Shown: positions 20,073 to 55,587 of the stretch, piece by piece
Position numbering within the stretch: the stretch's first letter is position 1
How the letters are laid out: each line of letters starts with the position of its first letter
DNA from: Candidatus Bathyarchaeota archaeon
GTDB lineage: Archaea; Thermoproteota; Bathyarchaeia; Bathyarchaeales; Bathycorpusculaceae
Direction: 5' to 3'
Assembly (NCBI GenBank): GCA_963806535.1
Contig: CAWDYC010000005.1
Location: forward strand, 32,001-96,000
DNA length: 64,000 bases
Program-made: the position numbers and the translations under genes
The notes under the pieces: model-generated
The model's database searches: none
Seen by the model: the letters and a program-made list of their open reading frames with translations, nothing else
What the model was told of the DNA's origin: nothing

Positions 20073-22248
<2,176 letters not shown>

Positions 22249-27811: not shown

Positions 27812-27972
27812 GCAAAATCTCCAACGTTATGTGGCTTTTCAATTAGTGAATGCGCAGGTGTAAGCGTCTGTGCCGGAAATTTGCTTATTTCCCTGAATTT
27901 TTAATTTATTAAATGATTAATTTTTTATAGGGCATTATAACATTCGAATAACTTAATGAGAGAGGGAAAGGA

Positions 27973-28251
27973 TTGACCAGCATCAAAAAACGGTTAGACT
28001 ACGTCCTAAACGAGCTATCACACATGGACACCCAGCTTAACTTGGAAGCTTCCAATAGTGTTGCAGCTCAATTGTCAATTATAAAAGATGCCTTTAAAGA
28101 ATCCGACCAGTGTCCAGTATGTTGCTTTGATTACGACGCAAAAGCCCGTATCATTTGCGATGTTAACGGTCCGTTGCCAACTGAGGAATTCATGGGCAAA
28201 TGCAAACAATGTCAGGCTCAAATTAAGCAAGCACTTTCAATTTTATCCTAG
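27973..28251 (+). CDS. Hypothetical Cys-containing protein
   Basis: 92 aa; CPVCC and CKQC; SD upstream. Confidence 0.55.
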   Translation: MTSIKKRLDYVLNELSHMDTQLNLEASNSVAAQLSIIKDAFKESDQCPVCCFDYDAKARIICDVNGPLPTEEFMGKCKQCQAQIKQALSILS

Positions 28252-28356
28252 TTGTTATTTGACTGTGTTAGCCTTAACTTGGTTAAATGTAGCCGTCTCG
28301 TCACAGTCACACATGTTTAAAGCATTCTTTCTATCTAAGCTCTTCAGGGATTTTGA

Positions 28357-28656
28357 ATGGAAAGAAATTCTGAAAACATGATGCAGAAATACCTTGTTTT
28401 AATAAAAGTAGATACTAAACAAACCCTAGATTTCTTAAATTCAATATCTGCACTGTCAAACATGCCGGCAGAAGGTGTAAGACTTGACGCTACCTATAAT
28501 GTCTTTGGAAACTGGGATTTTGCCGTGTGGTTTGAAGCAAATACTAACGAAAACGCTGTTCATTTCGTAGGTGAACAAATTCGCTCAATAAAGGGCGTAA
28601 CTGAAACAGTTACAATGCCCGCGACAGCAGTCAAAGAATATCCTATGAATATGTAA
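28357..28656 (+). CDS. Lrp/AsnC ligand-binding (GYD-like) domain protein
   Basis: VFGNWDF, IRSIKGVTETVT. Confidence 0.7.
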   Translation: MERNSENMMQKYLVLIKVDTKQTLDFLNSISALSNMPAEGVRLDATYNVFGNWDFAVWFEANTNENAVHFVGEQIRSIKGVTETVTMPATAVKEYPMNM

Positions 28657-34287: not shown

Positions 34288-34633
34288 CGCAATAGTCTTA
34301 ATCTTGGCTCTTTCCTGTTGTGTTTTAAACTTAATGAAGTATCTAATAAAAGCATAGACAAATTTTTCCGGTTTATTTATGGAATAAGTCAGCTCATTTG
34401 CCTAAATGAATTTGAAAGTGTTTTGTCTTATTCTTTACTGTTTAGCAAGCAAGCTATTTTGATCTAATTAGAAACTGCATGGTGTAACGAGGTTTTTTGG
34501 GTGACTAGCCTATATAGTTAACATTACATTAGTAAACTATTGTCGGGATAATTCAAGAAAGAGTACAACCTGCGCCTAGAAGAACAGACTTTTTCAAGAC
34601 AATTTCTGGCAAACAACTTCATGAGGGGAATAT

Positions 34634-35290
34634 TTGAATCAAAAAAAGCCAACGATAATGGAGCATCTTGCGTTTCTTTCAGTGAAACAAGGGATTTACC
34701 TTGCAGAACTTTACGAAGCAATGGTTGCAGCCAGAGAAAAAGGAAAAATCAAATGCCAAAATCTACTGGTTGAATACCGCTGCAGCATAAAAGACGAAGC
34801 CATATTTCTAATTACCAAAGACAGCAAAGTTGTACTGCAGTTTCGAGTTGAAGAAGAACTTCTCCAGAAAAAAGACATCTGTTTCGAACACTGGATGGAC
34901 ACCGACAAAGTACGCAAACAAATGAATAGACAAAGTTTCTCGCCTAAAGCATCTGTTTTAGTTCAAGATCTGCGGCATGGAATGAAAAAAGTTAATCTGG
35001 AAGCTAAAGTTCTCGAGATTCCAACACCCTCAACAGTCCAAACAAGGTACGGAAACAGCGCCAAAGTAACTAATGCTTGGATAGAGGATGAAACAGGAAA
35101 AGTAAAGCTTTGTCTTTGGAATGAACAAGCAGAACTCTTTAGCGTCGGCGACACTGTACAGATTAAGAATGCTTCAGTTTCCACATTTAAAGGTGAAAGA
35201 CAACTTCGCCTTGGAAAAAATGGAACCGCCACTGTGCTCCAAAACTCTGTCATGCTGAAAGAAAGCAGAGACAAGCGGTCGCAAAAATAG
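34634..35290 (+). CDS. SSB/RPA-type OB-fold protein with N-terminal extension
   Basis: DLRHGMKKVN, DETGKVKLCLWN, FKGE.QL.LG. Confidence 0.8.
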   Translation: MNQKKPTIMEHLAFLSVKQGIYLAELYEAMVAAREKGKIKCQNLLVEYRCSIKDEAIFLITKDSKVVLQFRVEEELLQKKDICFEHWMDTDKVRKQMNRQSFSPKASVLVQDLRHGMKKVNLEAKVLEIPTPSTVQTRYGNSAKVTNAWIEDETGKVKLCLWNEQAELFSVGDTVQIKNASVSTFKGERQLRLGKNGTATVLQNSVMLKESRDKRSQK

Positions 35291-41259: not shown

Positions 41260-42693
41260 TTAAACCTCAGCATACCGCGGCTTTTCATCAACACTTCGAG
41301 GTCGCCGTGGCCAAAAAAATGCACTGGCAAAAAGCACAATAAATGAAATAAAAATCAACATAAACAATGTATCATAAGCCTGCCCAACGGTGGTTTTCCA
41401 AAAGAAACACTGGAAATAATCATTTGCGTAAGCACCTGGACCGGGCCAACTCCATCCTCCTCCTTTTGCGCTAGACTGCCACCAAACTGGTCCACTTACA
41501 ATTAGGTCAAGTTGCCAAAGACTAAAGAAAAGCATCCCCATAGCCACCATTACCCCTGCAAGGTTAAGGACGGCGCTTGTCTTGACAAGATTGCCCCAAG
41601 ATCTCTTGAAACGTTCAGGAAATGTCTGGCGGACACATTCCTTCGCCCCAAATTTGGGCTTGCGAGTAAGTTTATTATTTAAGTAGCCCATAGCAGACAT
41701 TCTTGCAGTCTCAAACACTCCGTAAACAAAAACTGCCGTTCCTGACAGAAGCATCCCGAAGCCAGCATAATTCATTGTTGTATCTTTTGCGTAGGAACTA
41801 GCTATTAAGGATCCGTTAATTACCAGCATTGCACCAATGCCGATCGCCCATATGCTGCCCAATATGACGCTTGGTCTGTATCCACCTTCACATTCTTCAT
41901 CTATATCCAAACGGTTTTTTAGCGTAGAAACAACTGTTCCTGAAATTCCTATGCTTAAAACAGCAATACCGGAAAGTAGCATTCCAAACCCTGCATAATT
42001 CATCACCGATTGCTTAGTGTACGCACCGGCTAAAATAGAGCCAATTACGAAAAGAACTACTCCAATGCCCATCGATAAGATGCTAAAATAAAGAATCCTC
42101 GGTTTATCAACCTTGATGCCAGATCTTTTTTTATTCTGGTCCAATTCGATTTTCAGGATACCTAATGCCGTTCCAAATGCGCCAAGCACACAGATGCATA
42201 TTCCCGTCAACAGCATTGCGAATCCGGTGGTGTTTGTAACTGTGTTTTTGGCGTAAGTACCGGTTATTATTGAGCCGATTATGGCTAGAATTATGCCGAT
42301 GCCAATTGCCCATATGCTGGGTGACAGCATTTTGGGTTTGGTAACTTTGCTTTTTGTAGGGGCTTCTTCGATGAGACGGGTGACTAAAGTTGAATTTGCC
42401 GATGCACTTATGCCCAAAACGAAAATGGATATTCCCACCGTTAACATGGCAAAGCCCGCATAATTTGTGATTGTGGCTTTGTCGTAAGAACTCGATATTA
42501 CTGACCCAATAATTGCTACAACTAGACCAATAGCTATTATAGTTGTTTTGCTGCTGTGAGGTTCCCGATGTTTCTGACGGTTTACAGGGCGTTTATGTCT
42601 GTGATTCTGCTGTGGCTTTTGGCTTTCTTTCGGCTCAGGATTTTCTGACAAATTCATCCCCCTCACTAGCTTATTTTTGTTTCTGCAAACCAA
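41260..42693 (-). CDS. Membrane protein with four internal 2-TM repeats
   Basis: Unit IG.....IGS.I...Y.K....N..GF.ML..G repeated four times. Confidence 0.75.
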   Translation of the reverse strand: MVCRNKNKLVRGMNLSENPEPKESQKPQQNHRHKRPVNRQKHREPHSSKTTIIAIGLVVAIIGSVISSSYDKATITNYAGFAMLTVGISIFVLGISASANSTLVTRLIEEAPTKSKVTKPKMLSPSIWAIGIGIILAIIGSIITGTYAKNTVTNTTGFAMLLTGICICVLGAFGTALGILKIELDQNKKRSGIKVDKPRILYFSILSMGIGVVLFVIGSILAGAYTKQSVMNYAGFGMLLSGIAVLSIGISGTVVSTLKNRLDIDEECEGGYRPSVILGSIWAIGIGAMLVINGSLIASSYAKDTTMNYAGFGMLLSGTAVFVYGVFETARMSAMGYLNNKLTRKPKFGAKECVRQTFPERFKRSWGNLVKTSAVLNLAGVMVAMGMLFFSLWQLDLIVSGPVWWQSSAKGGGWSWPGPGAYANDYFQCFFWKTTVGQAYDTLFMLIFISFIVLFASAFFWPRRPRSVDEKPRYAEV

Positions 42694-42919
42694 GAGAATA
42701 TTATTATTGTGTTCTCTTGCCTATAACATTTGGCTCTGTATTTTATATTGAGTCTGAACGGTTAAAGAAGACAGTTGCCATCAAAGATCTCCTTAAATCT
42801 ACTAACGTTCAAAGCGTGTTTAATTTCCAAAACGAAAAAAACTATATTTCCTATGCGTCGCATGTCAGCAGTTAACACTTGAACAAGCTAATCGAACATG
42901 GTTAAGAATTTGTAATATT

Positions 42920-43853
42920 TTACTGTTTATCTTGAGGTTTTGCCACACCTGTAAAACTAGCATAGGTACCTTTGCGATCGAATGCGGCAACCAACTCTTT
43001 GAAGTTAACAATGATTAGAGCCAGCAAAGTGAAGAAAGGTATTAGTGCATAGTAGTAAAGCGGCGTGGTGACGGCTGAGGCAAAAACCATGCTTAGAAAG
43101 TTTGATGCCATGCCCGGATAAAGAAGCATTGCATTTGATAACGCTAACGAGCCGATTAGGCTTATCGTTGCAGCTTTGAGGTTTTTGCGATTATACATGA
43201 TGAAGAGTGGCAGCGCAAGCAATCCGAATCTTGGGTCAAAAAATCCAAAGGCTAAAGCAATTCCTGACAGGTAAGGTTTGCCTCGGTTTCCGAAGTAAAA
43301 GCTAAGTAAAAGAAGGAAGGTGAGGAAGACTTTGGCTTGTCCTTCACCCCACTGCCAATAGTAACTTAGAGATAAACCCTGATTTAGTGTGGGGAAAGGC
43401 AGCAGCAAAGCGATAACCATAACCACCAAAGCCACGGCAATGTGCTTGTTCTCAAGGAGCTTATACAGAATGTACGCCATTAAGGGAAGAAGCATAAACT
43501 GGATTATGTCGAAGGCAAGAAGCGCCTGCTGATAGTTTAGCGCCAGCAGCGGGGAAACGATTAGGAGGAAGGATGGCAGATACTTGTATTCTTCAGGATG
43601 AGGCAGGATGGTTGGTTCCCCATCGTTTAAGGCTCCAAAATTGTAAATGTGTGCTGGATTATTCCAAAGTCTCCAAGCGCCCATGTAGTAAGCTGAAAAA
43701 TCTTTTGCCAACGGGGTGCCTGAAGTGTTTATGCCTGGCGTCTATTGTGTAAGTTTCTGGGTAAGCAATTATGAAAGTGTATAAATTCAAAAGTATGATG
43801 ACTGCGACTGCTGTGATTAGAATAATTTTGGTTAAGTGTGATCGGTGAACCAT
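42920..43853 (-). CDS. GT87-like membrane glycosyltransferase (one frameshift near 43730)
   Basis: KDFSAYY..A, YKYLPSF, EGQ; N-terminus lies in ORF 43659-43904. Confidence 0.7.
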
Positions 43854-44077
43854 CTTTGCCCCAACAGCCGTTGCAGTTTGGAATCTAATATTTTTGTGGA
43901 GCATTTATACTTGATTGTTATGCTTTGGATCTTGCAATTTTTTTGGATGAATTTCTTTTGCGTTCTGGCTGATTAATTTCCTGCAATGTATTACATATGT
44001 AATACAGATGAAAATGCTTTTATTCAATTTCCCCATTCAAGCCATCAAACGCCAAAAGAACAAGGATTGAGAATGAA

Positions 44078-44695
44078 ATGATTAGGCAACAAAGCAAAGC
44101 CAAACAAGTTGCAATAACCGCAATGGTTGCAGCAATATACGCTATACTATTTTTTGGGTCAGCACCAGGTATGTTACCAGGATTTACACTTCTTTATCTT
44201 CCAGTTATTCTACTAGGCGTTTTTCCCATTTGGTTTGGCTGGAGCGGACTTGCAGGATGCATGATTGGTGCTTTTATTGGCGGAGTGTACGTCGAGCAGG
44301 TAGCACCTTATGCCGCATGGGTAGAATCCGTCACTGCACTAATTATCTTCGGATTAAATTGGATTCTTATTCCTCGAAATGCCGTTGAAAACAAAACAAA
44401 AAGAAATCTTATTCTCCTTGTGGTTGCGTATGCCATTTCTCTTTTCATTGGAACCGCCTACATCCTATGGCAATATACCTATCTCTTTAGCATCGGGATT
44501 TTAGCGTTCAGTATTCTAGGCGGATTTTCCTTTGTAGTTGTTCTGCTGGCGACCTACAGTCTCAACTTGGTTATCCAACTTGCCGTATGCCCTGCTTTGC
44601 TGAGAGCGGTTACACCGAGGTTGAAAAGCTGGGGAGTTTACTCTGGCAACTTTACTGAATGGAGACGACTCAGAGCCAAATCCCAAGTAAAGTAA
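44078..44695 (+). CDS. ECF S-component-like (QueT-type) membrane protein
   Basis: VAITAMVAAIYA, FG..G..G..IG; 5-6 TM segments. Confidence 0.6.
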   Translation: MIRQQSKAKQVAITAMVAAIYAILFFGSAPGMLPGFTLLYLPVILLGVFPIWFGWSGLAGCMIGAFIGGVYVEQVAPYAAWVESVTALIIFGLNWILIPRNAVENKTKRNLILLVVAYAISLFIGTAYILWQYTYLFSIGILAFSILGGFSFVVVLLATYSLNLVIQLAVCPALLRAVTPRLKSWGVYSGNFTEWRRLRAKSQVK

Positions 44696-44833
44696 CCATA
44701 AACTCACTTTATTTTACTATTAAATCATCAGCTGATTTTTCTTCTAAACTGTATCTAAAATATTTTGGCGCCTAAACAATTAGCAAGGCTTTTAAGTTAT
44801 CTGCTCCCTTAAAAGCAGTCCTGAGTGCCGCAC

Positions 44834-45350
44834 ATGAAAATTAAGAATAATAAAACTAACCCCTGAAATGCTTATTGAATTATTGAAGGGCAAAACAACA
44901 AATTTTACATCAAATCTTCCAAACGACACAGAACTATTAGATATAAAATTTGATTTATTTTCAAAACAAGTCCTCGCAGTAGTTAGAAGCAACAGTTTCG
45001 AGGACATCGCCGAATCCTACCCAATCCCCGAATTCAACCTAACAAGCACCATGGAAACTAAAATTACGCCCAAACAAACAACAGCTGTTAAATCGGAACC
45101 CAAGCCTGAACCTAAAATTGCACCCGCAAGTACTGCTCAACCAAGCAAAACAGCAATCAAAATGGAAAATGAATTTAGTCCAGAACAACGCAAAGTGCTC
45201 AGCTTCACAGTAAAAGGAGACTATGTTATTGTAAAGCCTATTCAATTTTTGAAGGCTGAATGGGATGACATCAACGAGGTTGTCAGAAGCTTAGGCGGTA
45301 AATGGGTGAAAGGCGACATCATAAGCTACTGGGAAATCCCTCTTCAGTAA
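44834..45350 (+). CDS. Hypothetical protein (probable 1-nt indel near the start)
   Basis: ORF 44868-45350 extends to MKLRIIKLTPEM with one base removed; C-terminal V..LGGKWV....YW. Confidence 0.65.
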
Positions 45351-45407
45351 TCTGGGGAAAATTCTTTAAACAAGTTACACCCTAAACACAGTCACGGATG
45401 TATCAAG

Positions 45408-45826
45408 ATGGCACAAGCCCGTAAACCTCTAACAAGAGATTCCTTAGTTTCCATGCAAGTAATAGATTCAAATGGACAGTTGGTTGGAAAAGTTGCAGAC
45501 ATCGCTTTTGAAGTTGGAAAGACAGGTGTTTCCCTAGCAGTCGAGACTCAAAAATGGGGAAACCAAAATAGTTGAATGGTCAGAAGTTCAAGCGGCATTA
45601 GACTTCATAATATTAAAAGCTCAATTTTCTGACAATCAAAGCGATACTGAAATCCCCCAAACTCAGCAACAAACAACTCAACCACAAGAAATCACCCAGC
45701 AACAACCAAAACAAATACTGACCAAAGCAAAAAACTCCGCCGCTTTGTCCAACATGCAATAAACCGCTCAAATGGATTCCGCAATACAAACGATACTACT
45801 GCTACGACGATAAAAAATACTGTTAA
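45408..45826 (+). CDS. PRC-barrel plus C-terminal zinc ribbon protein (two frameshifts)
   Basis: LVSMQVIDSNGQLVGKVADI..., Q-rich linker, CPTCNKPLKWIPQYKRYYCY. Confidence 0.65.
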
Positions 45827-45861
45827 AAATCAAAAATCTAATTTTTTTTTATTCTGTTTCA

Positions 45862-46483
45862 CTAATGCAAAGGCTTTTCCAGTCTTGTGATTGTTCCATT
45901 TTTTCCGAGTCGAAGTTGCTTCTCACCTTTAAAGCTGGCAACGTGTAGCATTTCTTACTTCTATGTGGTCACCTATTGAAACAGCGTTTACCTGTTGATC
46001 CCAGAGGCAAAGCATGACTTTTCCAGTTTCATCTCCAATGACAGCGTTGGACACAAGGGCATTATCTCTAAATTGAGTATGAACTTTGGAAGGCTCCGAA
46101 GTCTCCAACACTTCTGCAATCACATTTATCTTTTTCATTCCTTCCCGCAGATCCCCAATTTTCATGTGACTTGGTGTTGGAGTTTGTTTCGCTATTTCTT
46201 TGCGAACTCTGCTTGTATCCATTGAATTATCGAATGAAACATCTGTTTTTGAAAGCATTTCTTCAGAAACGCGGAATTGAGAAATAACATTGCTGCCTTT
46301 CTTAATTAGAAAGATAGCTTGGTCATTTACGCTACCTCGGTATTCAACGGTTAAATCTTCACATACCGATTTTCCATGTTCTTTTGCCTGAATTAAAGAC
46401 TGAAAGAGCTCTGTTGGGTAAACATTATGCTGGGCTGAGATGAACGCAAGCTGATCTTCCAGTGTAGGCTTTTTCGGTTTCAA
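45862..46483 (-). CDS. SSB/RPA-type OB-fold protein, paralog of 34634-35290 (frameshift near 45950)
   Basis: KKPT...LAF, VEYR, DETGKVMLCLWD; shifted frame gives FKGEKQLRLGKNG. Confidence 0.8.
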
Positions 46484-46754
46484 ACTATTTTTTTCTCCTT
46501 TAGCGAATTATCTTGAAAAAAGCAAATGATCAAACTTCAAAATTTACTTTTTCTTGATTAATTCTAACAATTAATAATTATCATAATAACTATTTAGGTT
46601 TAGCTGCAAAAAAGCGGGTTTTTCAGGGTGAAACTACAGAATCTCGATAAATTTGAATTTAGTCGGCTTTAAATTCCAAAAAGCAAAAAGACTAGACATT
46701 CACATTACACTAATAGGAACTTTTTGTTCTAACAGACTTTTTGGTGCAAACAAT

Positions 46755-47629
46755 ATGGAGGAACTAAAAAAACTAACAAAAGTCGAATTAAAAAACTTGG
46801 ACAAGATTTTCTACCCCAAAATCAAAGTTACCAAAGCTCAAATTATCGAGTATTACATTAAATTGGCTCCAAACATATTGCCAGTAATTGCTGACAGACC
46901 ATTAGTTTTAACGAGGTATCCTGATGGGGTTGAAGGCGAAAAAGTTAGTTTCTTTGAAAAAAACGCTCCTGAAGGCACCCCAGACTGGGTTAAAACAAAA
47001 AATATTTACTCACCAACATCTAAACGAGACGTACACTATATTGTCTGCAATGATTTAGATACTCTTATTTGGCTTGCAAACTTGGCAGCTTTAGAAATTC
47101 ACATGCCTTTTTCCAAAATTGACCATGTTAGATAAACCTGATTTACTGTTTTTTGATGTTGACCCCGAACCACCAGCTACTTTAAGTGATGCAGCAGAAG
47201 TGGCGCTTTTGCTTAAAGACAAACTTTTGGATTTAGGGTTAACTCCTTTTGTTAAGACTTCCGGCAAAAAAGGGCTTCATGTTGTAATTCCAATTAATCC
47301 AGACCATACATTTGAGAAAGCGCAGAGCGTTTGTTCATGAAGTTGGAATTGAATTAGCTAAAGAAAGTGAAATTGTTGTTTCCGAGTTTAAGGATACAAA
47401 GAAACCTGGAAAGGTTTTTGCTGATTACCTTCAGAATTCTCCCTTGCGAACAATGGTTGTTCCATACAGCTTACGACCTACACCTGACGCCACTGTTTCA
47501 GCACCTTTGGAATGGAGTGAAGTTAAGAAAGGAATAAACCCTTCCGACTTCAATATTTTTACTGTAGTTGAACGGAAAAGTGATCCGTGGAAAAATATTT
47601 TTGAAAAAAGATGTAAATTGGAGATTTAA
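46755..47629 (+). CDS. NHEJ primase-polymerase (LigD Pol domain, stand-alone; two frameshifts)
   Basis: NLDKIFYP, RYPDG, FFEKN, LANLAALEIH, DVDP, KTSGKKGLHV, DYLQN, PYSLR, VSAPLEWSE. Confidence 0.9.
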
Positions 47630-47631
47630 TT

Positions 47632-48456
47632 ATGGCTCAGAAAAATGTTGAGAAAAAAGAAACTAAAAAAGTAAGTGCTCAAGCCCCAAGAAGATCAATT
47701 TGGTCAGGCAGCATTACTATAGGCTTAGTTAATGTTCCTGTTAAATTGTATTCAATGATTTATGATAAGGGAATAGCTTTTCATTTTCTTCATAAAGTTG
47801 ACGGTCAACCTTTAAAATACGTTAAAATGTGCACTAAAGACGACAAAATTGTTCCGTGGAACGAAGTTATTCGAGGCTACGAAGTTTCAAAAAACGAATA
47901 CATAACTTTAGATAATAAAGAGTTAGCTGCAGCCAAACCTGAATCAGACAACAGAATTAGAATCAGCAAATTTGTGGATTATTTCTCGGTTGACCCAGTA
48001 TACTTTGACAAAACCTACGCTTTAATGCCTGAGAAAAGCAAGGACGCCTACAGCTTACTCTTAACGGCTCTTGAGAAAAAAAATAAAGCCGGAGCTGGAC
48101 GCATAACCCTTCGAACAAAAGAATATCCTGCATTGCTACATGCTTACAAAGGGACATTGGTTTTAACAACGTTACGTTACGCCTACGATGTTGTGGATCC
48201 GCAGGATTTTGAAGAAGCCCAAAAGCTAAAAGAGCCAGAAAAAGCCGAGTTAGATATGGCTATAAAAATAGTCAGTGACCTCTCAGGAGAATTTGACATT
48301 AGCGAATTCGAAGACACCTACATGAAAAGAGTTGAAGAACTAATAGCGCAAAAAGTGAAAGGTGAAAAAATCCATATTGAGAAGCCGCCGGAAGTTGAAG
48401 CTAAAGGTCTCATGGTTGCGCTGCGTGAAACTCTCAAGCAGTTGGAACAGAAATGA
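47632..48456 (+). CDS. ku: Ku protein
   Basis: RSIWSGSITIGLVNVPVKLY, RGYEV, YFDKTY.L.P, FED.Y. Confidence 0.95.
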   Translation: MAQKNVEKKETKKVSAQAPRRSIWSGSITIGLVNVPVKLYSMIYDKGIAFHFLHKVDGQPLKYVKMCTKDDKIVPWNEVIRGYEVSKNEYITLDNKELAAAKPESDNRIRISKFVDYFSVDPVYFDKTYALMPEKSKDAYSLLLTALEKKNKAGAGRITLRTKEYPALLHAYKGTLVLTTLRYAYDVVDPQDFEEAQKLKEPEKAELDMAIKIVSDLSGEFDISEFEDTYMKRVEELIAQKVKGEKIHIEKPPEVEAKGLMVALRETLKQLEQK

Positions 48457-49433
48457 GCCGTCACATCTACAAACCTATGCTTGCAAAAGAAGCTCCAGAT
48501 GCTTTCACAGATAAAGACTGGATTTTCGAAATTAAATGGGATGGCTTTCGCGCCATCTCCTATATCGATGAAAGATTCAGCGTAAAAAGCCGCAACGAAA
48601 AGGAACTAAAATATAATTTTCCAGAACTTTCAGAGCTTACAAAGTTAGCTAGTAACATAGTTGTTGACGGCGAAATCGTTGTGATGAGCGAAGGCAAACC
48701 TGACTTTCAAGCTCTTCTTGAACGAGGTCAAGCAGTTTCGTCAGGTGAAATTCAAAGGCAAACCAATCGGGCACCAGTAACATACATTGTTTTTGATATT
48801 TTAGAAAAAGATGGCAAATCGCTTACTAACTTGCCGTTGATGGAGAGGAAACAAATTTTAAAGGATTCGTTGAAAGAGGGTTCACGTGTTTTTTTGTCTG
48901 ACTTCATTGAGGAGAAAGGAGAAGCTTACTTCAAGTTGGTTTTGGAGAAAGGCTTGGAAGGGGTGATGGCGAAAAACAAAGAAAGCCATTATGAGGAAGG
49001 TTTACGGACTGGGAGTTGGTTAAAAATAAAGAAACTTAAAACTTGTGACTGCGTAATTTTTGGGTACACACAAGGCACGCAATCTAGAGGAAAAACTTTT
49101 GGGGCATTAATTTTAGGACTCTACGATAAAGATGGCAAACCAGTTTATGTGGGAAAGGTTGGAACTGGTTTTACACAGGAAATGCTGGGGATTTTAATGG
49201 ATAAATTTGAAAAATTAAAAACGGATAATGCGCCTTTTAAGCCCGAAGCTGGCGATAAAGTTACTTGGCTTGAGCCCAAACTAGTTTGCGAAGTTGCTTT
49301 TCAAGTTGTGACAAAAGATTTGAGGTTAAGAATGCCACGTTTCAAAGGATTAAGAGACGATAAGTCGCCTGCTGAATGCACTATTGATCAGCTTGACGAA
49401 GTCAAAAAAAATGAGAGCATCATCCAAAGATAA
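48453..49433 (+). CDS. ligD: NHEJ ATP-dependent DNA ligase (LigD ligase domain)
   Basis: PMLA, EIKWDGFR, DGEIV, FDIL, EGVMAK, WLKIK, GKVGTGF, LRMPRFKGLRDDK. Confidence 0.93.
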   Translation: MSRHIYKPMLAKEAPDAFTDKDWIFEIKWDGFRAISYIDERFSVKSRNEKELKYNFPELSELTKLASNIVVDGEIVVMSEGKPDFQALLERGQAVSSGEIQRQTNRAPVTYIVFDILEKDGKSLTNLPLMERKQILKDSLKEGSRVFLSDFIEEKGEAYFKLVLEKGLEGVMAKNKESHYEEGLRTGSWLKIKKLKTCDCVIFGYTQGTQSRGKTFGALILGLYDKDGKPVYVGKVGTGFTQEMLGILMDKFEKLKTDNAPFKPEAGDKVTWLEPKLVCEVAFQVVTKDLRLRMPRFKGLRDDKSPAECTIDQLDEVKKNESIIQR

Positions 49434-49884
49434 GCTATCTGAATATGCTTCTAAACGTAATTTTCAACAAACCCCTGAACCTGCAGGAGGCGAAAAAAAA
49501 GGCGAGAAACAAATTTTTGTCGTCCAAGAGCATCATGCCAGAGCTCTTCACTATGATTTAAGACTGGAAAAAGATGGGGTTTTGAAAAGCTGGGCTGTTC
49601 CAAAAGGAATACCTGAAACACCTAGTCAGCGGCATTTGGCAGTGGAAACAGAGGATCACCCATTTGAATATGCAAATTTTGAGGGTTCAATTCCCAAAGG
49701 ACAATATGGTGCTGGAACAGTCAAAATCTGGGATAAAGGACATTATGAAACTAAGTTTTGGGATGAAAACAAGATTGAGTTTACGCTTAATGGTCAAAGG
49801 CTTAAAGGACGCTATGTTTTGGTGTGGTTAAAGAAAGCTAAGGGCAATGAGAAAAGTTGGCTGCTGTTAAAGGGCAAAGATTAG
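49411..49884 (+). CDS. LigD 3'-phosphoesterase (PE) domain, stand-alone
   Basis: KRNF..TPEP, FVVQEHHAR.LHYDLRLE, SWAVPKG, TEDHP..Y, YGAG.V.IWD.G. Confidence 0.93.
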   Translation: MRASSKDKLSEYASKRNFQQTPEPAGGEKKGEKQIFVVQEHHARALHYDLRLEKDGVLKSWAVPKGIPETPSQRHLAVETEDHPFEYANFEGSIPKGQYGAGTVKIWDKGHYETKFWDENKIEFTLNGQRLKGRYVLVWLKKAKGNEKSWLLLKGKD

Positions 49885-49885
49885 C

Positions 49886-50634
49886 ATGGTTAACCTTCAT
49901 TTGGGCACGATAGGCTGGAGCTACAATTTCTGGAAAGGACAAATTTTACCCAAATAAAGCTGCTTCTAAAGAATTTTTGGCTTATTACGCAACCAAATTT
50001 GACACGGTTGAGGTTGACAGCACATTTTACCGTATCCCAACCGCAGCAAGCCGTTACAAAATGGGAAAGCCAGACGCCTAGCAACTTTTTGTTCTCATTC
50101 AAGTTCCCAAGAGTTATCACCCATATTAAAATGCTAAAAGACTGTGAGCGGGAAACAAACCTTTTTCTTGAAAGAACAAACTTGCTTGGTGGAAAACTTG
50201 GCGCTTCGCTTTTGCAGTTTCCACCCAACTTCGGAGTTGACCGCTTTTCCGATTTAGCAGATTTCCTGCAGAAGCTTCCAAAGACCCGTCGTTATGTGGT
50301 TGAAGTCAGAGACGAGGAATGGCTTAACAGCGACTTCTATTCGCTTCTGCGCGCTAATGGCGTTGCATTTGGCTTGGGTTGACAGCCCCAGTATGCCACA
50401 AAGCGATGATGTAACTTCTGATTTTCTATATATTAGGTTAGAAGGCGACCGAAGCAAAGTCAACGGCACGTTAGGCACGATAGAAGCCGACAAAGACAGA
50501 AGGGCTGAAGATTGTGGGCAGAAAAAATAAAGCCCTGGCTTAGCAAGAACATGGAGGTTTATGGTTATTTCGGCAAATACTATTCAGGCTATCCTCCTTC
50601 AGACGTAAATTCCCTTTTAAAGCTCTTAACCTAA
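49886..50634 (+). CDS. DUF72 family protein (about three frameshifts)
   Basis: GTIGWSY..W, FYP, DTVEVDSTFY, FSFKFPR.ITH, LLQFPP.F, VEVR...W, YIRL.G. Confidence 0.85.
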
Positions 50635-50680
50635 CAATACTTTAGAATTAATCAAAATGAAAACTTGGAGATTAAAATTT

Positions 50681-51297
50681 ATGTTTTTTAAACAAATTCA
50701 GCAGCATGGCGACAACTTTTCGTATATTGATAGCAGACGAAGACACTAATGAAGCAGCAGTTGTTGATTCAAGCTTTAATTCAGGTGAAATAATTAAGAT
50801 TTTAAAAGCTAAAAAATTCAATTTAAAGTATATTGTTAATACGCATGGGCATTCTGATCATACAGCTGGAAATCTTGAGTTAAAATCTATTTTTGGAGCC
50901 AAAATAGTTGCGCATAAACTGTCAAAGGTCAACTTTGATGTTGCCGTGGAAGATGGAGACGTATTAACCGTTGGCAAAGTTTCACTAAAAGTTATTTACA
51001 CTCCAGGTCACTCACTCGACAGCATTTGCATTTTGATAGATAACAAGAAACTGTTAACAGGTGACACATTATTTGTTGGAGAATGTGGACGAACTGATTT
51101 ATCGGGCGGCAACTCCAAAAATTTGTATGATAGTCTGTTCAACAAGCTCTTAAAGCTGGATGATGCCATCGGAAGTTTATCCAGGGCATGATTACGGCTT
51201 GAAATCTTCGTCAACAATAGGTGAAGAAAAAAAATCAAATTATGTTTTGCAGCCAAGAAAAGTGGAAGATTTTATTGACTTCATGAACCAGCCTTAG
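50681..51297 (+). CDS. MBL-fold hydrolase, glyoxalase II-like (two frameshifts)
   Basis: DNFSY, THGHSDH, TPGHS, TGDTLF, GRTD, YPGHDYG. Confidence 0.85.
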
Positions 51298-51305
51298 GTG
51301 CTCGC

Positions 51306-52204
51306 CTATCTTCTTAATCTGCCAATCAAAACAATAGCAATCACAAAAATGATAAGTGCCAAGATTGGCACAAGTATGATAGGATGAAGGAACAATTCAA
51401 AATCTAAAATCAAGTTTTGGAGAATTGTGTTATTCTGAAGCGTGTTTGGTCGAGCGTTTTGAGCAGATACAGGTAAATAGCTATATTGAATGTTTGATGG
51501 TAAAACTACCGGGACTGGCTCTAACCAATCGCTAACAGGGTAGAAGTTGAATTGGTTTGTCATCCATGCAAATGTGGTTGCTACGCCATACACGTCAAGG
51601 GTGGAGATTGATTTAGCAGGCACCTAATAAGGCAATATCTGGAAACATGACGTCGCCAGTGTCATTGCTATGCCCTAAACCTAAAGCATGTCCTAACTCA
51701 TGAAGAGCAATATTTTGCATATCTCCATCAATTAAAGGCTCGCCGTGATGTGTATGTGTAGCAAGATTAATGGTGCACCCGATTATTTGCGTTACTCTCA
51801 CTGGTTAATGTTGCTAGTCCAATTTCATCCACTGAACCTGCTAAGTTGCTTTGCGTCCAATTTATGATAAATGTCAAAGCCAGATTTTGTATAATTCAAA
51901 ACAGTGGGTTCCAAGTTTGAGATTAGAAAGATAAACATAGTCTGCATTGTGGAGCTGCAAAGTAGCTGATGGCGTCATTCCATTGACCTATAGCGCGAAG
52001 CGTAGAATTAACGTAGATTGGGTTCCACCATGATTCGTTATTTGGAGTGGTTAAAAGAATTTTTAATGTTGACTTATTCCAGGCTAAACCCTGAATCTCC
52101 AAAGCGTAAACGTTTTGGTTTGGGCTTTGAGCTTGGCTAATAGCAAAGCTTCCAGCCGTTAAAAACAAAGTTGAGAATAACAAAAATACCAAAAAAAATC
52201 TCAT
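51306..52204 (-). CDS. Matrixin-family secreted metalloprotease (frameshifted)
   Basis: Signal peptide, HELGHALGLGH plus Met-turn DVMFP, C-terminal TM across three ORFs. Confidence 0.75.
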
Positions 52205-52681: not shown

Positions 52682-53929
52682 ATGTTAATTTTTGATTTAT
52701 TTTCAGTTATTTTGCTTTCGATTTTGCTTTTTTGGACCGTGTATAATGGTTCAATTATTTACGTCGGTGTAAGAAGTAGACGAAAGAATGCTGGAGTTGT
52801 TAAGGTTGAAAATAAGGAGTTTCCAAAGTTTTCAATAATAGTGCCAACTAAAGATGAAGAATTAGTTATTAGCCGCTGCTTAAACGGAATTCAAGAGTTA
52901 GATTATCCAAAGGATAAAATGGAGATAATAGTTGTCGATGGAAATTCATCTGACTCTACCCGCAAGATATGCCAAGAATTCGCGGAGAACTATTCAGGTA
53001 ATATCAAAATAATTAATGAGAAACAGTCAAGGGGAAAACCTGCGGCTCTTAACCTTGCCTTGTCCTACGTAACAGGAGAGATCGTTGGAGTTTTTGACGC
53101 TGACAGTCTTCCAGAAAAAGATGTTTTGAGCAAAGTTGCATCTTACTTTAACGATAAACTAGTGACGGCTGTACAAGGGAGAACTACTTCACTTAACGAG
53201 AAAAAGAACATATTAACCCGTGTTATCTCTTCAGAAGAGAAAGCTTGGTTCCAAGCTTTGCTAAGTGGACGAGAACACATGCAACTGTTTGTTCCACTAA
53301 ATGGTAGCTGCCAATTCATCAGACTTGGCGTACTGAAAGAATTAGGTGGCTGGGATGAAAACTCTTTGACTGAAGATGTAGAGTTGGCGCTTAGACTTGT
53401 TGAGAAAAAACATATTATAAAATATGCACATGATGTTGTTTCGGGACAAGAAACGCCGAATGGCTTAAGGGAATTAGTAAAGCAGAGGACCCGTTGGTAC
53501 AGAGGGTATATGGAAACGGCTCTAAAATATGGGCGCCTTCTAGATAGCCTAAATAGAAGAACGATTGATGCTGAAATTTCCATGGCTGGACCTTTTATGA
53601 TGGTCGTATCGTTGCTTAGTTACATCAACTGGTTTTGTATCATGTTATTCTTTTCATCAAGCAATCCGATAGTTGGTTTTACTGGAATAGTGATAGCTTT
53701 AACGGCTGTTTCATTGGTTTCAATTGGCGTTGGGTTAACTGCCTCTGAGAAGCCCATTAAAATTAGAAATCTTGCGTGGATACCGTCAATTTGGGCTTAT
53801 TGGATGCTTCAAATGTGTATTGCCGGATGGGCTTTTCTAAAATTGATATTTAGACGAAAAAGAGTTTGGAGTAAAACACTCAAAAAAGGCTTCATAACAA
53901 CAAATTTAGATGCTAACAAACCTCTTTAG
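52682..53929 (+). CDS. GT2 processive (cellulose synthase-like) glycosyltransferase
   Basis: GKPAALN, FDAD, TED, QRTRW; N- and C-terminal TM segments. Confidence 0.9.
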   Translation: MLIFDLFSVILLSILLFWTVYNGSIIYVGVRSRRKNAGVVKVENKEFPKFSIIVPTKDEELVISRCLNGIQELDYPKDKMEIIVVDGNSSDSTRKICQEFAENYSGNIKIINEKQSRGKPAALNLALSYVTGEIVGVFDADSLPEKDVLSKVASYFNDKLVTAVQGRTTSLNEKKNILTRVISSEEKAWFQALLSGREHMQLFVPLNGSCQFIRLGVLKELGGWDENSLTEDVELALRLVEKKHIIKYAHDVVSGQETPNGLRELVKQRTRWYRGYMETALKYGRLLDSLNRRTIDAEISMAGPFMMVVSLLSYINWFCIMLFFSSSNPIVGFTGIVIALTAVSLVSIGVGLTASEKPIKIRNLAWIPSIWAYWMLQMCIAGWAFLKLIFRRKRVWSKTLKKGFITTNLDANKPL

Positions 53930-54099
53930 ATTCAAAAAAATAGTCCGATGAATTGAAAACAATGGTGTATATTCATTATTTTTCCTAAAATTTTAAATCA
54001 AGCACCAATCTATTCATTCATAATAACTAATGACAGAGTGGTTGGAAAATGGAGAATTACCCCTCACCTGAATAAACATTTCAATACGATGATCTAAAG

Positions 54100-55587
54100 T
54101 TGGTTAAATACAAAAAAATTGGTGATTTAAGAGGGTTAAGGTTTTCTTCTTTACAGGCTTCTCTTGATGTTGAATTTAAGAAAGGTTTTTTCAATGATCG
54201 TTGGCGATTTAGTAAAAAGGCCAAAGGTCTAATTGTTTTCGCGATTATTGCTGTAATGTTGATTTCTGTTTTTGCGTTTTTGCCTAAGCAAGGAAGCTCT
54301 ATAATTCCTCAAAACACAGCCCCCCCAATAAGCCCGTCGCCTTCGCCTTCATCAACTGCCAGCGTTACTCGTACAAATTATTCAATGCCACAAATTGTAC
54401 CATTGTTACCTGCTCTTACGCCTAGTCCTACACCTAAGCCTCCGGGCCTGATAGAATCAGCTCAAACTGTTAATAGTACTGTATGGCGAGGTGTGGCAAA
54501 TTATGCTTGGAACTACTTCCAACCTGATGTTGGGGTTGACCCGGGGACTGGGCTTCCTTATGCTTCAGGTATAGATTTTATGGCGTTTACTGATTGGGAT
54601 CTGGGTGTTTATATTCAAGCGGTTATAGATGCTCAGAAAATTGGTTTAGTCGGTCCTGGTGGTGACTGGGGATCTAATGCACGATTCGATAAGGTTTTAA
54701 CTTTTTTAGAAACTCGGGAGTTAAATAATGCTAGTTATCCATACCAGTTCTACAACTCCACAGACGGAGGAAACTATCACTTATTATCCGATGTATCTAA
54801 TTCTTCATATGATGTTGTGGATACTGGACGATTGTTTGTTGCTCTCAACAATCTTAGAAATTTCAATACTAACTTTACGACCCGTATAAACAACTTTGTT
54901 TACAATACAAATGGGAATAGATCAAACTATGCTGCCTTAGTGCCATCCATTGCTCAAGATGCAAATTCAAACAGCATTTATTCTTACTATTTTGATAGTG
55001 GCTTCGCAAGTTTTTGGCCTAAACAGCTCGGAAATTTACCTGCCACCATAATGAACAACATATCTAAATCTCCTACTGTACTAACTTACGGTAACATTTC
55101 ATTACCTAAAGCTGCGATTAGTTGTGACCCATTGCTCTGCTCTGTATTTGAGCTAAATAATACTAACTCAAAATTGATGGCGTTAGCAAACCAGGTTTAT
55201 TTGGCTCACGAAGCCTATTATAACTCGACAAACAATTATGTGGCTTTCAGTGAAGGTCCGGCAGGCGCTACGGGGTTCATTTGGGAATGGGTGGTTTCGC
55301 CCAACGGCGATGCGTGGAAAATACAGAATCAAGATAATCTTGGAAGCAGCGGTTACCTAAATATAGATCCTGTTTTTTACACTAAAGTCGCGTTTAGTTT
55401 CTTGGCTCTTTACAATACAACGTTTGCGCACAACATGGTGGTTTGTCTTGAGCATTATCTTGAAACTCCTACAAACGGTTATGAGGATGGCATGGATAAC
55501 AAATACAATTTGTTTGAATCTGTTGGCAGCAACACTAATGGATTAATTTTGGATGCAGCCCAATATGCTATACAGAATTATCCATAG
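54100..55587 (+). CDS. DUF3131-like secreted glycoside hydrolase / transglycosylase
   Basis: A..AWNYF, TGLP, T.WDLG.Y, DTGRL..AL, K.AF, NTNG.IL motifs; N-terminal TM. Confidence 0.65.
   Translation: MVKYKKIGDLRGLRFSSLQASLDVEFKKGFFNDRWRFSKKAKGLIVFAIIAVMLISVFAFLPKQGSSIIPQNTAPPISPSPSPSSTASVTRTNYSMPQIVPLLPALTPSPTPKPPGLIESAQTVNSTVWRGVANYAWNYFQPDVGVDPGTGLPYASGIDFMAFTDWDLGVYIQAVIDAQKIGLVGPGGDWGSNARFDKVLTFLETRELNNASYPYQFYNSTDGGNYHLLSDVSNSSYDVVDTGRLFVALNNLRNFNTNFTTRINNFVYNTNGNRSNYAALVPSIAQDANSNSIYSYYFDSGFASFWPKQLGNLPATIMNNISKSPTVLTYGNISLPKAAISCDPLLCSVFELNNTNSKLMALANQVYLAHEAYYNSTNNYVAFSEGPAGATGFIWEWVVSPNGDAWKIQNQDNLGSSGYLNIDPVFYTKVAFSFLALYNTTFAHNMVVCLEHYLETPTNGYEDGMDNKYNLFESVGSNTNGLILDAAQYAIQNYP

Follow-up and report, generated by a model that had tools for sequence, protein, structure and literature searches.

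A predicted non-homologous end-joining operon and its linked DUF72 gene in a lineage of Bathyarchaeia

We analyzed a 64,000-nt stretch of contig CAWDYC010000005.1 (referred to as the window; locus coordinates are window positions) from the 2.95 Mb, 12-contig genome assembly of a Candidatus Bathyarchaeota archaeon and characterized a locus at 45862-51297 that encodes components of non-homologous end joining (NHEJ). Gene identities were assigned from a listing of open reading frames (ORFs) and a Pfam profile search. Intact orthologues from a related locus (L002, Ku 95% identical) were additionally compared with NCBIfam equivalog-domain models using curated cut-offs, and the closest relative of the window was a further locus, L001, whose Ku is 97% identical. 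On the forward strand, a gene for a LigD-type primase-polymerase (Pol, 46755-47629) is followed by an intact Ku gene of 274 amino acids (aa; 47632-48456), a ligase-phosphoesterase region (Lig-PE, 48453-49884) and a gene of the DUF72 family (49886-50634), which is the last gene of the conserved operon. Within Lig-PE, the ligase occupies 48453-49433 and the phosphoesterase (PE) extends from an ATG at 49411 or a TTG at 49384 to 49884. The junctions are tight: Pol and Ku are 2 nt apart, Ku and Lig overlap by ATGA, and a single nucleotide separates PE from DUF72. The operon is flanked downstream by a gene for a hydrolase of the metallo-beta-lactamase (MBL) fold and upstream by a divergent gene for a protein resembling single-stranded DNA-binding proteins (SSB-like gene).

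Pfam matches were obtained for all seven of these genes at the positions given in the original prediction, an earlier annotation made from the sequence alone, and the tight junctions it described were confirmed as well. Its claim of a full Ku-dependent set is borne out by the presence of Ku, Pol, Lig and PE, and a profile search of the 12 contigs showed that Ku, Pol and PE are single-copy in the genome. Base composition of the locus is host-like, again as predicted. The GC content of the locus is 0.383 vs a genome mean of 0.407 (s.d. 0.023 for windows of equal size), and its tetranucleotide distance of 0.251 is reached or exceeded by 15% of 300 random windows.

The window Ku protein matched Pfam Ku (PF02735) at E 1e-39 over profile positions 2-190 of 190 (136.7 bits vs a cut-off of 25), and its 281-aa L002 orthologue passed TIGR02772 (Ku_bact) with 252.2 bits vs 150. 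In case of Pol, LigD_Prim-Pol matches were found on three ORFs (46653-47135, 47119-47340 and 47312-47629) which tile profile positions 1-96, 97-160 and 162-254, so that the complete domain is present only across three frames and in no single one. The intact L002 Pol (295 aa) passed TIGR02778 (ligD_pol) with 242 bits vs 214.7. Among solved structures, Pol best matches 5dmu, 'NHEJ Polymerase' (E 6e-47), which we take to be the Methanocella paludicola protein. Hallmarks of the LigD primase-polymerases, members of the archaeo-eukaryotic primase (AEP) family, are an acidic DxD and an SGxxGxH motif. The window translation contains the motifs FFDVDP and KTSGKKGLHVV, which align to DLDP and TTGSRGLHVV of 5dmu. 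Both ligase domains were detected on 48453-49433 (PF01068, DNA_ligase_A_M, 127.6 bits; PF04679, A_C, 98.2 bits). The adenylation motif of ATP-dependent ligases is KxDG; the window ligase carries EIKWDG, with K28, D30 and G31 invariant in the ligase alignment, and the L002 ligase passed TIGR02779 (NHEJ_ligase_lig) with 270.8 bits vs 227.75. PE matched PF13298 (LigD_N) on 49384-49884 over profile positions 1-106 of 107 (E 5e-43, 146 bits vs a cut-off of 31.1). Its L002 counterpart passed TIGR02777 (LigD_PE_dom) with 191.9 bits vs 144 and matched 3p43 at E 3e-48. Together with 5dmu and 3p43, the solved relatives of the locus proteins include 1vs0.

A scan with the Ku protein yielded 69 loci with Ku identities of 77-97%, nearly all from records titled Bathyarchaeota or Bathyarchaeia. 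Twelve L002 proteins were mapped onto all 69; the whole Lig-PE gene is contained in 63 of these loci and cut by contig ends in the other six. The genes of L002 are intact and encode an SSB-like protein of 215 aa, Pol (295 aa), Ku (281 aa), Lig with a C-terminal PE in a single ORF (479 aa), DUF72 (250 aa) and the MBL protein (212 aa). The original prediction was to be abandoned if gene order was not conserved in relatives, and we found the same order in all 69 loci. Lig-PE is a single-frame, fused gene of about 475 aa in 55 of the 63 full loci. The remaining eight copies are broken into two to three frames at differing positions, and all eight carry one style of isolate name ('MFD...bin'), presumably denoting long-read assemblies. 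Lig and PE as two clean separate genes were found in none of the 63 relatives with the full gene. A protein search with Lig-PE further listed at least 120 clusters at 71-82% identity, nearly all 464-490 aa long and all with PF01068, PF04679 and PF13298; among those listed, one is a 349-aa fragment with 100% identity. Public annotation pipelines already give these genes names, and where named they appear as 'non-homologous end-joining DNA ligase [Candidatus Bathyarchaeia archaeon]' at NCBI and as bifunctional LigD at JGI.

Because Lig-PE is fused in relatives and cleanly split in none of them, we read the native operon of this lineage from its genes as Pol, Ku, Lig-PE (with a C-terminal PE) and DUF72, which means three NHEJ genes and not four. 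The part of the original prediction that had four separate NHEJ genes is thus not upheld. In the window, Pol is spread over three frames, and where relatives read through from Lig into PE as one protein, the window has a +1 shift in a run of eight adenines (A8).

Several loci of these scans deviated from the common arrangement in their details. In 11 of the 69 loci (L027, L033, L037, L041, L046, L047, L049, L050, L057, L058 and L059), 1.36-2.3 kb are inserted between Pol and Ku; the insert of L050 contains a 402-aa ORF which by eye resembles an aldo-keto reductase with a Cys-rich tail. Two loci from records titled as bacteria, L056 (Limnocylindrales) and L066 (Acidoferrum), carry a Bathyarchaeia-type Ku (84-85% identity) with the same neighbours and are probably mis-binned contigs. 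Further, a Bathyarchaeota-titled record (L116, 5001-6751) contains Pol, Ku, a ligase matched only over residues 1-315 and DUF72 directly after it, with no PE part found.

To interpret the broken genes of the window, frame changes were mapped by tblastn of the twelve L002 proteins against the window and by piecewise mapping of DUF72. The frameshift-dense stretch spans 42962-52204 and contains 15 shifts in 8 of the 12 genes, all between 43.7 and 51.8 kb (the first in 43680-43735, the last at 51786-51788). One shift lies in a GT87-like membrane protein, two in a 128-aa protein, one in the SSB-like gene (frames -2 and -1, break at about 45945-45947), two in Pol (at about 47110-47129 and about 47322), one in Lig-PE (frame 3 to frame 1 at 49393-49418, a +1 shift in the A8 run 49404-49411), four in DUF72 (five pieces in frames 2, 3, 1, 2 and 1, covering residues 1-244 of the L002 orthologue), two in the MBL gene (three pieces in frames 2, 3 and 1) and two in a metalloprotease-like gene. 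The four unbroken genes encode Ku, a GT2 glycosyltransferase, a membrane protein and a 176-aa protein, and the flanking ORFs at 41263-42720, 52682-53929 and 54076-55584 are intact as well. Most other genes of the window are whole, so the breaks come in patches.

Fourteen of the 15 frame changes are net +1. Three of them (two in Pol, one in the SSB-like gene) correspond to single extra bases of the window in a 91%-identical DNA alignment with L001; the equivalent alignment with L002 (80% identity) contains too many real indels to be informative. The broken genes still show low ratios of nonsynonymous to synonymous substitution (dN/dS). Against L002 these range from 0.06 to 0.16 (Pol 0.10, Lig-PE 0.096, SSB-like gene 0.096, MBL 0.15, protease-like gene 0.16), compared with 0.04-0.18 for pairs of intact orthologues, and against L001 we obtained 0.07 for the SSB-like gene, 0.14 for Pol and 0.04 for Ku. 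The value of 0.29 for DUF72 is unreliable since the alignments pass through five stops. Similar damage was found elsewhere in the genome. A class-I aminoacyl-tRNA synthetase gene (C4:269238-271731, reverse strand) is broken into two frames that overlap (462 and 435 codons), the gene for a third ATP-dependent DNA ligase (C4:115434-116020, forward strand) lies in three pieces, and DUF72 paralogues at C3:51141-53234 (reverse strand) are fragmented by stops. Among about 49 ABC ATPase domains, 44 are clean and 5, located in clusters, are split or interrupted.

Given that 14 of the 15 shifts share one sign, that the window has extra bases relative to L001, that dN/dS is low and that a tRNA synthetase gene is broken in the same way, the three-piece Pol, the Lig/PE split and the broken DUF72, MBL and SSB-like genes most probably represent errors of the assembly consensus and not biology. 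Four observations weigh against this. The shifts are clustered within about 8 kb and not evenly spread, several of them lie outside homopolymers (for example in Pol and the SSB-like gene), PE has an in-frame ATG at 49411 after the Lig/PE shift which makes a working two-gene form conceivable, and one relative with another naming style, L043, also has a shifted DUF72 tail, which means that real shifts do occur in this family. The first two observations would fit real and very recent decay, in which the strain is losing the NHEJ operon together with its neighbours and Pol, DUF72, MBL and the SSB-like gene are young pseudogenes. The operon may also be dispensable, as Ku was not found in 4 of the 24 genus genomes searched, although these four are only 58-96% complete. 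We nevertheless consider such decay unlikely: the affected genes carry no nonsense substitutions or large deletions and retain the low dN/dS, natural mutations would not be expected to share one direction, unrelated neighbouring genes are equally affected, and the essential-type tRNA synthetase elsewhere in the genome is damaged in the same way.

The ATG at 49411 bears on another possibility, namely a true gene fission in which the extra A in the A8 run is real and Lig and PE are two proteins from overlapping genes, as in Methanocella, independently of how the other shifts arose. Lig would then stop at 49433, the ATG opens a frame with the whole PE domain, and the break is located in the linker between both domains. 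In other archaea, PE and Lig are active as separate proteins, according to the available text of PMC3082917. The same region in relatives argues in the other direction, since separate intact Lig and PE genes were found in none of the 63 full loci and all 120 listed Lig-PE clusters carry both domains. Further, 13 neighbouring shifts are likewise +1, and the shift falls into a homopolymer of eight, a classic site for consensus errors. Fission thus seems highly improbable. With assembly error as the favoured explanation, the practical lesson is that gene "splits" in this genome are not trustworthy without reads.

Two additional regions of the window show comparable breaks. A catalase-peroxidase-like gene (Pfam 'peroxidase'; 20076-22241, reverse strand) is present in three frame pieces. 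It lies in a high-GC island (GC 0.557 vs 0.41 for the genome; tetranucleotide distance 0.60 vs a mean of 0.22) and looks foreign. At 27952-28653 on the forward strand, three ORFs of about 99 codons (27952-28248, 28085-28378 and 28357-28653) follow each other in successive overlapping frames, with weak Pfam matches for the last one only; this may be another frame-broken gene.

We then determined how widely the operon is distributed; the Ku figures describe the genomes searched and not absence in general. Within the genus, 20 of 24 other genomes yielded a Ku match, compared with only 1 of 16 genomes sampled from the order's other families. In an even sample of the phylum, the figure was 13 of 401 genomes (5 of 158 genera). 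This is in agreement with the rarity of the NHEJ set in archaea assumed in the original prediction. All five of the more distant Ku-bearing genomes examined (G040, G207, G298, G400 and G425) contain Pol, Ku, Lig-PE and DUF72 in the same order at 42-64% identity. A wider scan with a Lig-PE alignment returned 80 loci, 22 with archaeal and 58 with bacterial record titles. In 20 of the 22 archaeal-titled loci, Lig is followed by PE in one fused gene and Pol stands separately upstream of Ku; the records are from Bathyarchaeia, five from Methanoregula/Methanoregulaceae/Methanomicrobiales, one from Methanosarcinales and one from Nitrososphaerota.

In a quick maximum-likelihood tree of 72 Ku proteins, the 29 of this archaeal type formed one clade (SH-aLRT 100), with the methanogen sequences placed inside it at weaker support. 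In the midpoint-rooted tree, a weak split (94, on a very short branch) left the archaeal-type clade on one side together with Ku from two-Ku operons (Nitrospirota, Thermodesulfobacteriota and similar groups). Since the sampling of loci is biased and the root was not inferred, we make no claim about the donor of Ku or the direction of transfer. Our literature search, which did not reach subscription journals, found no paper on NHEJ in Bathyarchaeia, and two surveys of archaeal Ku and NHEJ make no mention of Bathyarchaeota in the available main text. Matches combining 'LigD' and Bathyarchaeia were rejected because they concern lignin-degradation genes. A whole lineage of uncultured soil and peat Bathyarchaeia keeps a compact operon under purifying selection, with an architecture of its own in which Lig carries a fused C-terminal PE and Pol stands alone.

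The most consistent companion of these NHEJ genes is DUF72. In the window its longest piece matched Pfam DUF72 (PF01904) at 49999-50382 with E 1e-30, and in 60 of the 63 close loci the gene starts within 15 nt downstream of Lig-PE. It occupies this place in each of the five distant genomes and in 14 of the 22 archaeal-titled loci that the wider scan returned; among the 58 bacterial loci, which had been selected by LigD, it lies directly downstream in 9. DUF72 is therefore a true and consistent member of the operon. In a reverse scan, an alignment of the bacterial operon-linked DUF72 proteins served as query and the best 80 bacterial DUF72 loci were inspected. Ku or LigD genes were present within 6 kb in 34 of these 80 (22 among the 25 closest loci, 12 among the remaining 55), in varied arrangements; 8 of the 34 are contigs that had already come up before, and raw linkage counts are inflated by relatedness among the genomes. 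For comparison, a gene chosen at random would be expected to have LigD within 6 kb in far fewer than 1% of genomes that measure a few megabases. Record titles of the 12 more distant loci name Verrucomicrobia, Gammaproteobacteria, Gemmatimonadales/Gemmatimonadota, Chitinophagales, Eisenbacteria, Bacteroidota, Thiobacillus, Gemmataceae and Thermoanaerobaculia, and convergent, divergent and co-directional arrangements occur among these loci. This variety argues for a repeated or maintained linkage between DUF72 and NHEJ.

A tree of 41 DUF72 proteins supports the existence of specific operon-linked subfamilies. The 16 operon-linked archaeal proteins formed one clade (99) and the 8 operon-linked bacterial proteins another (96), whereas unlinked paralogues of the same archaea fell into three clades apart from these two. 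The two linked clades may or may not be sister groups in this tree. A DUF72 family that tracks presence and absence of Ku as a whole was considered and rejected, because 36 of 41 relatives have DUF72 paralogues; specificity is confined to the operon-linked clade.

Sequence and structure comparisons place the protein among TIM barrels. DUF72 matched 1vpq (TM1631 of Thermotoga maritima) at E 3e-17, and an AlphaFold model of the L002 protein (pLDDT 95.4) aligned to three DUF72 crystal structures with Z scores of 24.7-24.8 (1vpy 24.8, 1vpq 24.7). The next structural tier consists of xylose-isomerase-like TIM barrels at Z 11-13, and comparisons with endonuclease IV gave 12.7 (5zhz, M. tuberculosis) and 11.7 (1qtw, E. 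coli), with a viral apurinic/apyrimidinic (AP) endonuclease at 12.8 (6khy). The similarity to these endonucleases is thus confined to what the wider TIM-barrel superfamily shares. In a Foldseek search against the PDB, only DUF72 structures stood out, with other TIM barrels at a TM score of about 0.5, and no sequence match to endonuclease IV or AP endonuclease family 2 was found in Pfam or NCBIfam. According to the available text of Konc et al. 2013 (PMC3828134), Tm1631 was predicted to be an endonuclease-IV-like repair enzyme by binding-site comparison and simulation, with Ser10, Tyr47/48, Lys72, His79, Gln114, Arg145 and Arg191 placed at its DNA and phosphate site. By manual count, these residues correspond to S12, F47/Y48, K72, H79, Q110, R141 and R183 of the L002 protein, and the seven site positions are invariant or nearly so in 19 operon-linked archaeal DUF72 proteins. 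Tm1631 belongs to the same DUF72 family; as far as the available text goes, its prediction used no genomic context, whereas the link to Ku and LigD was found here. Our literature search found no paper that joins DUF72 and NHEJ, nor DUF72/UPF0759 among the top-ranked LigD papers.

Based on gene neighbourhood and modelled fold, we tentatively propose an end-cleaning or lesion-processing role in NHEJ for the operon-linked DUF72 proteins. In this scenario one DUF72 subfamily could be an unrecognised fifth enzyme of prokaryotic end joining, an endonuclease-IV-like TIM barrel which cleans damaged or blocked ends. Judged by record titles, its reach would extend over Bathyarchaeia, at least one methanogen-titled and one Nitrososphaerota-titled record, and bacteria of about ten phylum-level groups. 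The proposal is weakened by the fact that it is drawn from neighbourhood and fold, and by two further points. DUF72 paralogues are also common where Ku is lacking (DUF72 in 36 of 41 genomes, frequently in more than one copy; Ku in 22 of 41), and endonuclease IV (Z 11.7-12.8) ties with sugar isomerases and epimerases (Z 12-13). A complex prediction for two Ku and one DUF72 scored 0.00 in two runs without controls, and nothing is drawn from this result. If true, the proposal would provide a function for a widespread family of unknown function, and the recurrent DUF72-NHEJ neighbourhood in both domains makes the computational guess of 2013 directly testable.

The two outer genes of the locus behave differently from DUF72. 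The MBL-fold gene (50657-51297, forward strand) encodes a small, glyoxalase-II-like hydrolase with a Lactamase_B match at 50706-51191 (E 1e-23). The best NCBIfam match of the 212-aa L002 protein was GSH_gloB (glyoxalase II) with 123.7 bits, below the cut-off of 200.8. Its distance from DUF72 varies from 5 to 1769 nt among relatives, and 9 of the 69 loci lack it, including 6 in which the contig ends before DUF72. A nuclease of the Artemis/SNM1 type was considered and rejected for this protein, as it has no beta-CASP domain and matched only Lactamase_B and, weakly, Lactamase_B_2 (E up to 0.01). The MBL hydrolase is thus probably a neighbour and not part of the system.

The SSB-like gene (45862-46489, reverse strand) matched Pfam Ssb-like_OB at 45929-46483 (E 4e-07), with a further piece down to 45868, and scored 30.4 bits for PF21473 vs a cut-off of 24, in line with the single Ssb-like OB fold of a crenarchaeal-type SSB. 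Residues 112-203 of the L002 protein matched SSB in the PDB (1o7i/2mna, E 8e-14) and SOSS-B1 (E 3e-08). For the N-terminal residues up to about 110 no match was found, and all NCBIfam SSB equivalogs remained far below their cut-offs. The gene is divergent from Pol and lies 235-332 nt upstream of it in 58 of the 69 close loci, and not further out. The genome contains six Ssb-like OB genes, and a role as dedicated NHEJ factor is not supported beyond the closest relatives for this one of six paralogues. A second SSB-like gene of 221 aa is located in the window itself (34625-35287, forward strand); it is 50% identical and has the same N-terminal domain.

A MAFFT alignment of the divergent intergenic region between the SSB-like gene and Pol (46490-46754) from 63 loci revealed several blocks with at least 90% column identity, so a co-regulation of both genes is possible. 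Both arms of an inverted repeat (46517-46527 and 46542-46552, 91% complementary) lie in conserved blocks, and the repeat may represent an operator or leader structure. A promoter and terminator scan gave 12 matches vs 12.5 expected and 6 vs 5.5 expected from shuffles; it used bacterial-type models, and archaeal promoters are outside their scope.

According to the original prediction, a complete NHEJ operon of four split genes had DUF72, the MBL hydrolase and the SSB-like gene as extra components. Adjacency of the seven genes in the window and in many close relatives would speak for such a system, as would the regular spacing of the SSB-like gene and an MBL gene within 120 nt of DUF72 in 19 loci. 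On the other hand, Lig and PE are fused in relatives, the spacing of the MBL gene is variable and its product resembles a small-molecule hydrolase, the SSB-like gene has five further family members in the genome, and around the operon of the five distant genomes examined neither of the two genes was found. In its entirety, the extended split operon is therefore very hard to credit. The DUF72 component of the proposed extension is retained on the strength of its close linkage to Lig-PE, and the MBL and SSB-like components are given up as neighbours only among the closest relatives.

Taken together, the locus is probably this organism's copy of an end-joining operon conserved in a lineage of Bathyarchaeia, with breaks that would be errors of the assembly. 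By analogy with the bacterial and Methanocella systems, Ku would act as a dimer that slides onto the broken ends and brings in the enzymes, Pol would fill or extend the ends, PE would trim 3' ribonucleotides and 3' phosphates and Lig would seal the nick. DUF72, as a TIM barrel whose nearest folds include endonuclease IV, might clean damaged or blocked ends before ligation; among possible functions we tentatively favour this one.

NHEJ is described as rare in archaea, with Ku and a LigD ligase found in 10 of 243 archaeal genomes (PMC7719229, available text), and a full NHEJ complex in archaea is described only from Methanocella in the available text of PMC7554672. The archaeo-prokaryotic NHEJ of Methanocella paludicola comprises Ku, Pol, PE and Lig (Bartlett et al. 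2013, as cited in the available portions of PMC7554672 and PMC7719229), and the Bathyarchaeia operon would provide the same four activities from the same families. The Methanocella components are four separate proteins, whereas the Bathyarchaeia lineage is predicted to make Lig and PE as one protein (single frame in 55 of 63 full loci) and has DUF72 as its last operon gene, which sets it apart from a Methanocella-type arrangement with separate Lig and PE genes. The bacterial systems with Ku and multidomain LigD (Mycobacterium, Pseudomonas, Bacillus) likewise combine Ku with Lig, Pol and PE domains, and the L002 proteins pass NCBI's bacterial equivalog-domain models for all four. The order of domains differs, however. 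PE comes before Lig in 56 of the 58 bacterial-titled loci, where Pol mostly follows, in contrast to the archaeal type with Lig before PE and a separate Pol upstream of Ku. A further parallel is found in the Nitrososphaerales, whose ancestor acquired a complete NHEJ set from bacteria according to the available text of Abby et al. 2020 (PMC7554672). These archaea are also soil-dwelling and belong to the same broad group, but to a different class than Bathyarchaeia, and one Nitrososphaerota-titled record (L108) carries the Bathyarchaeia-type module of Pol, Ku, Lig-PE and DUF72. As judged from gene content, the system thus resembles both Methanocella and bacterial Ku-LigD NHEJ and would differ from them in domain arrangement and in DUF72. 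The conserved operon is new as a variant of known NHEJ, and the link to DUF72 is the part of interest.

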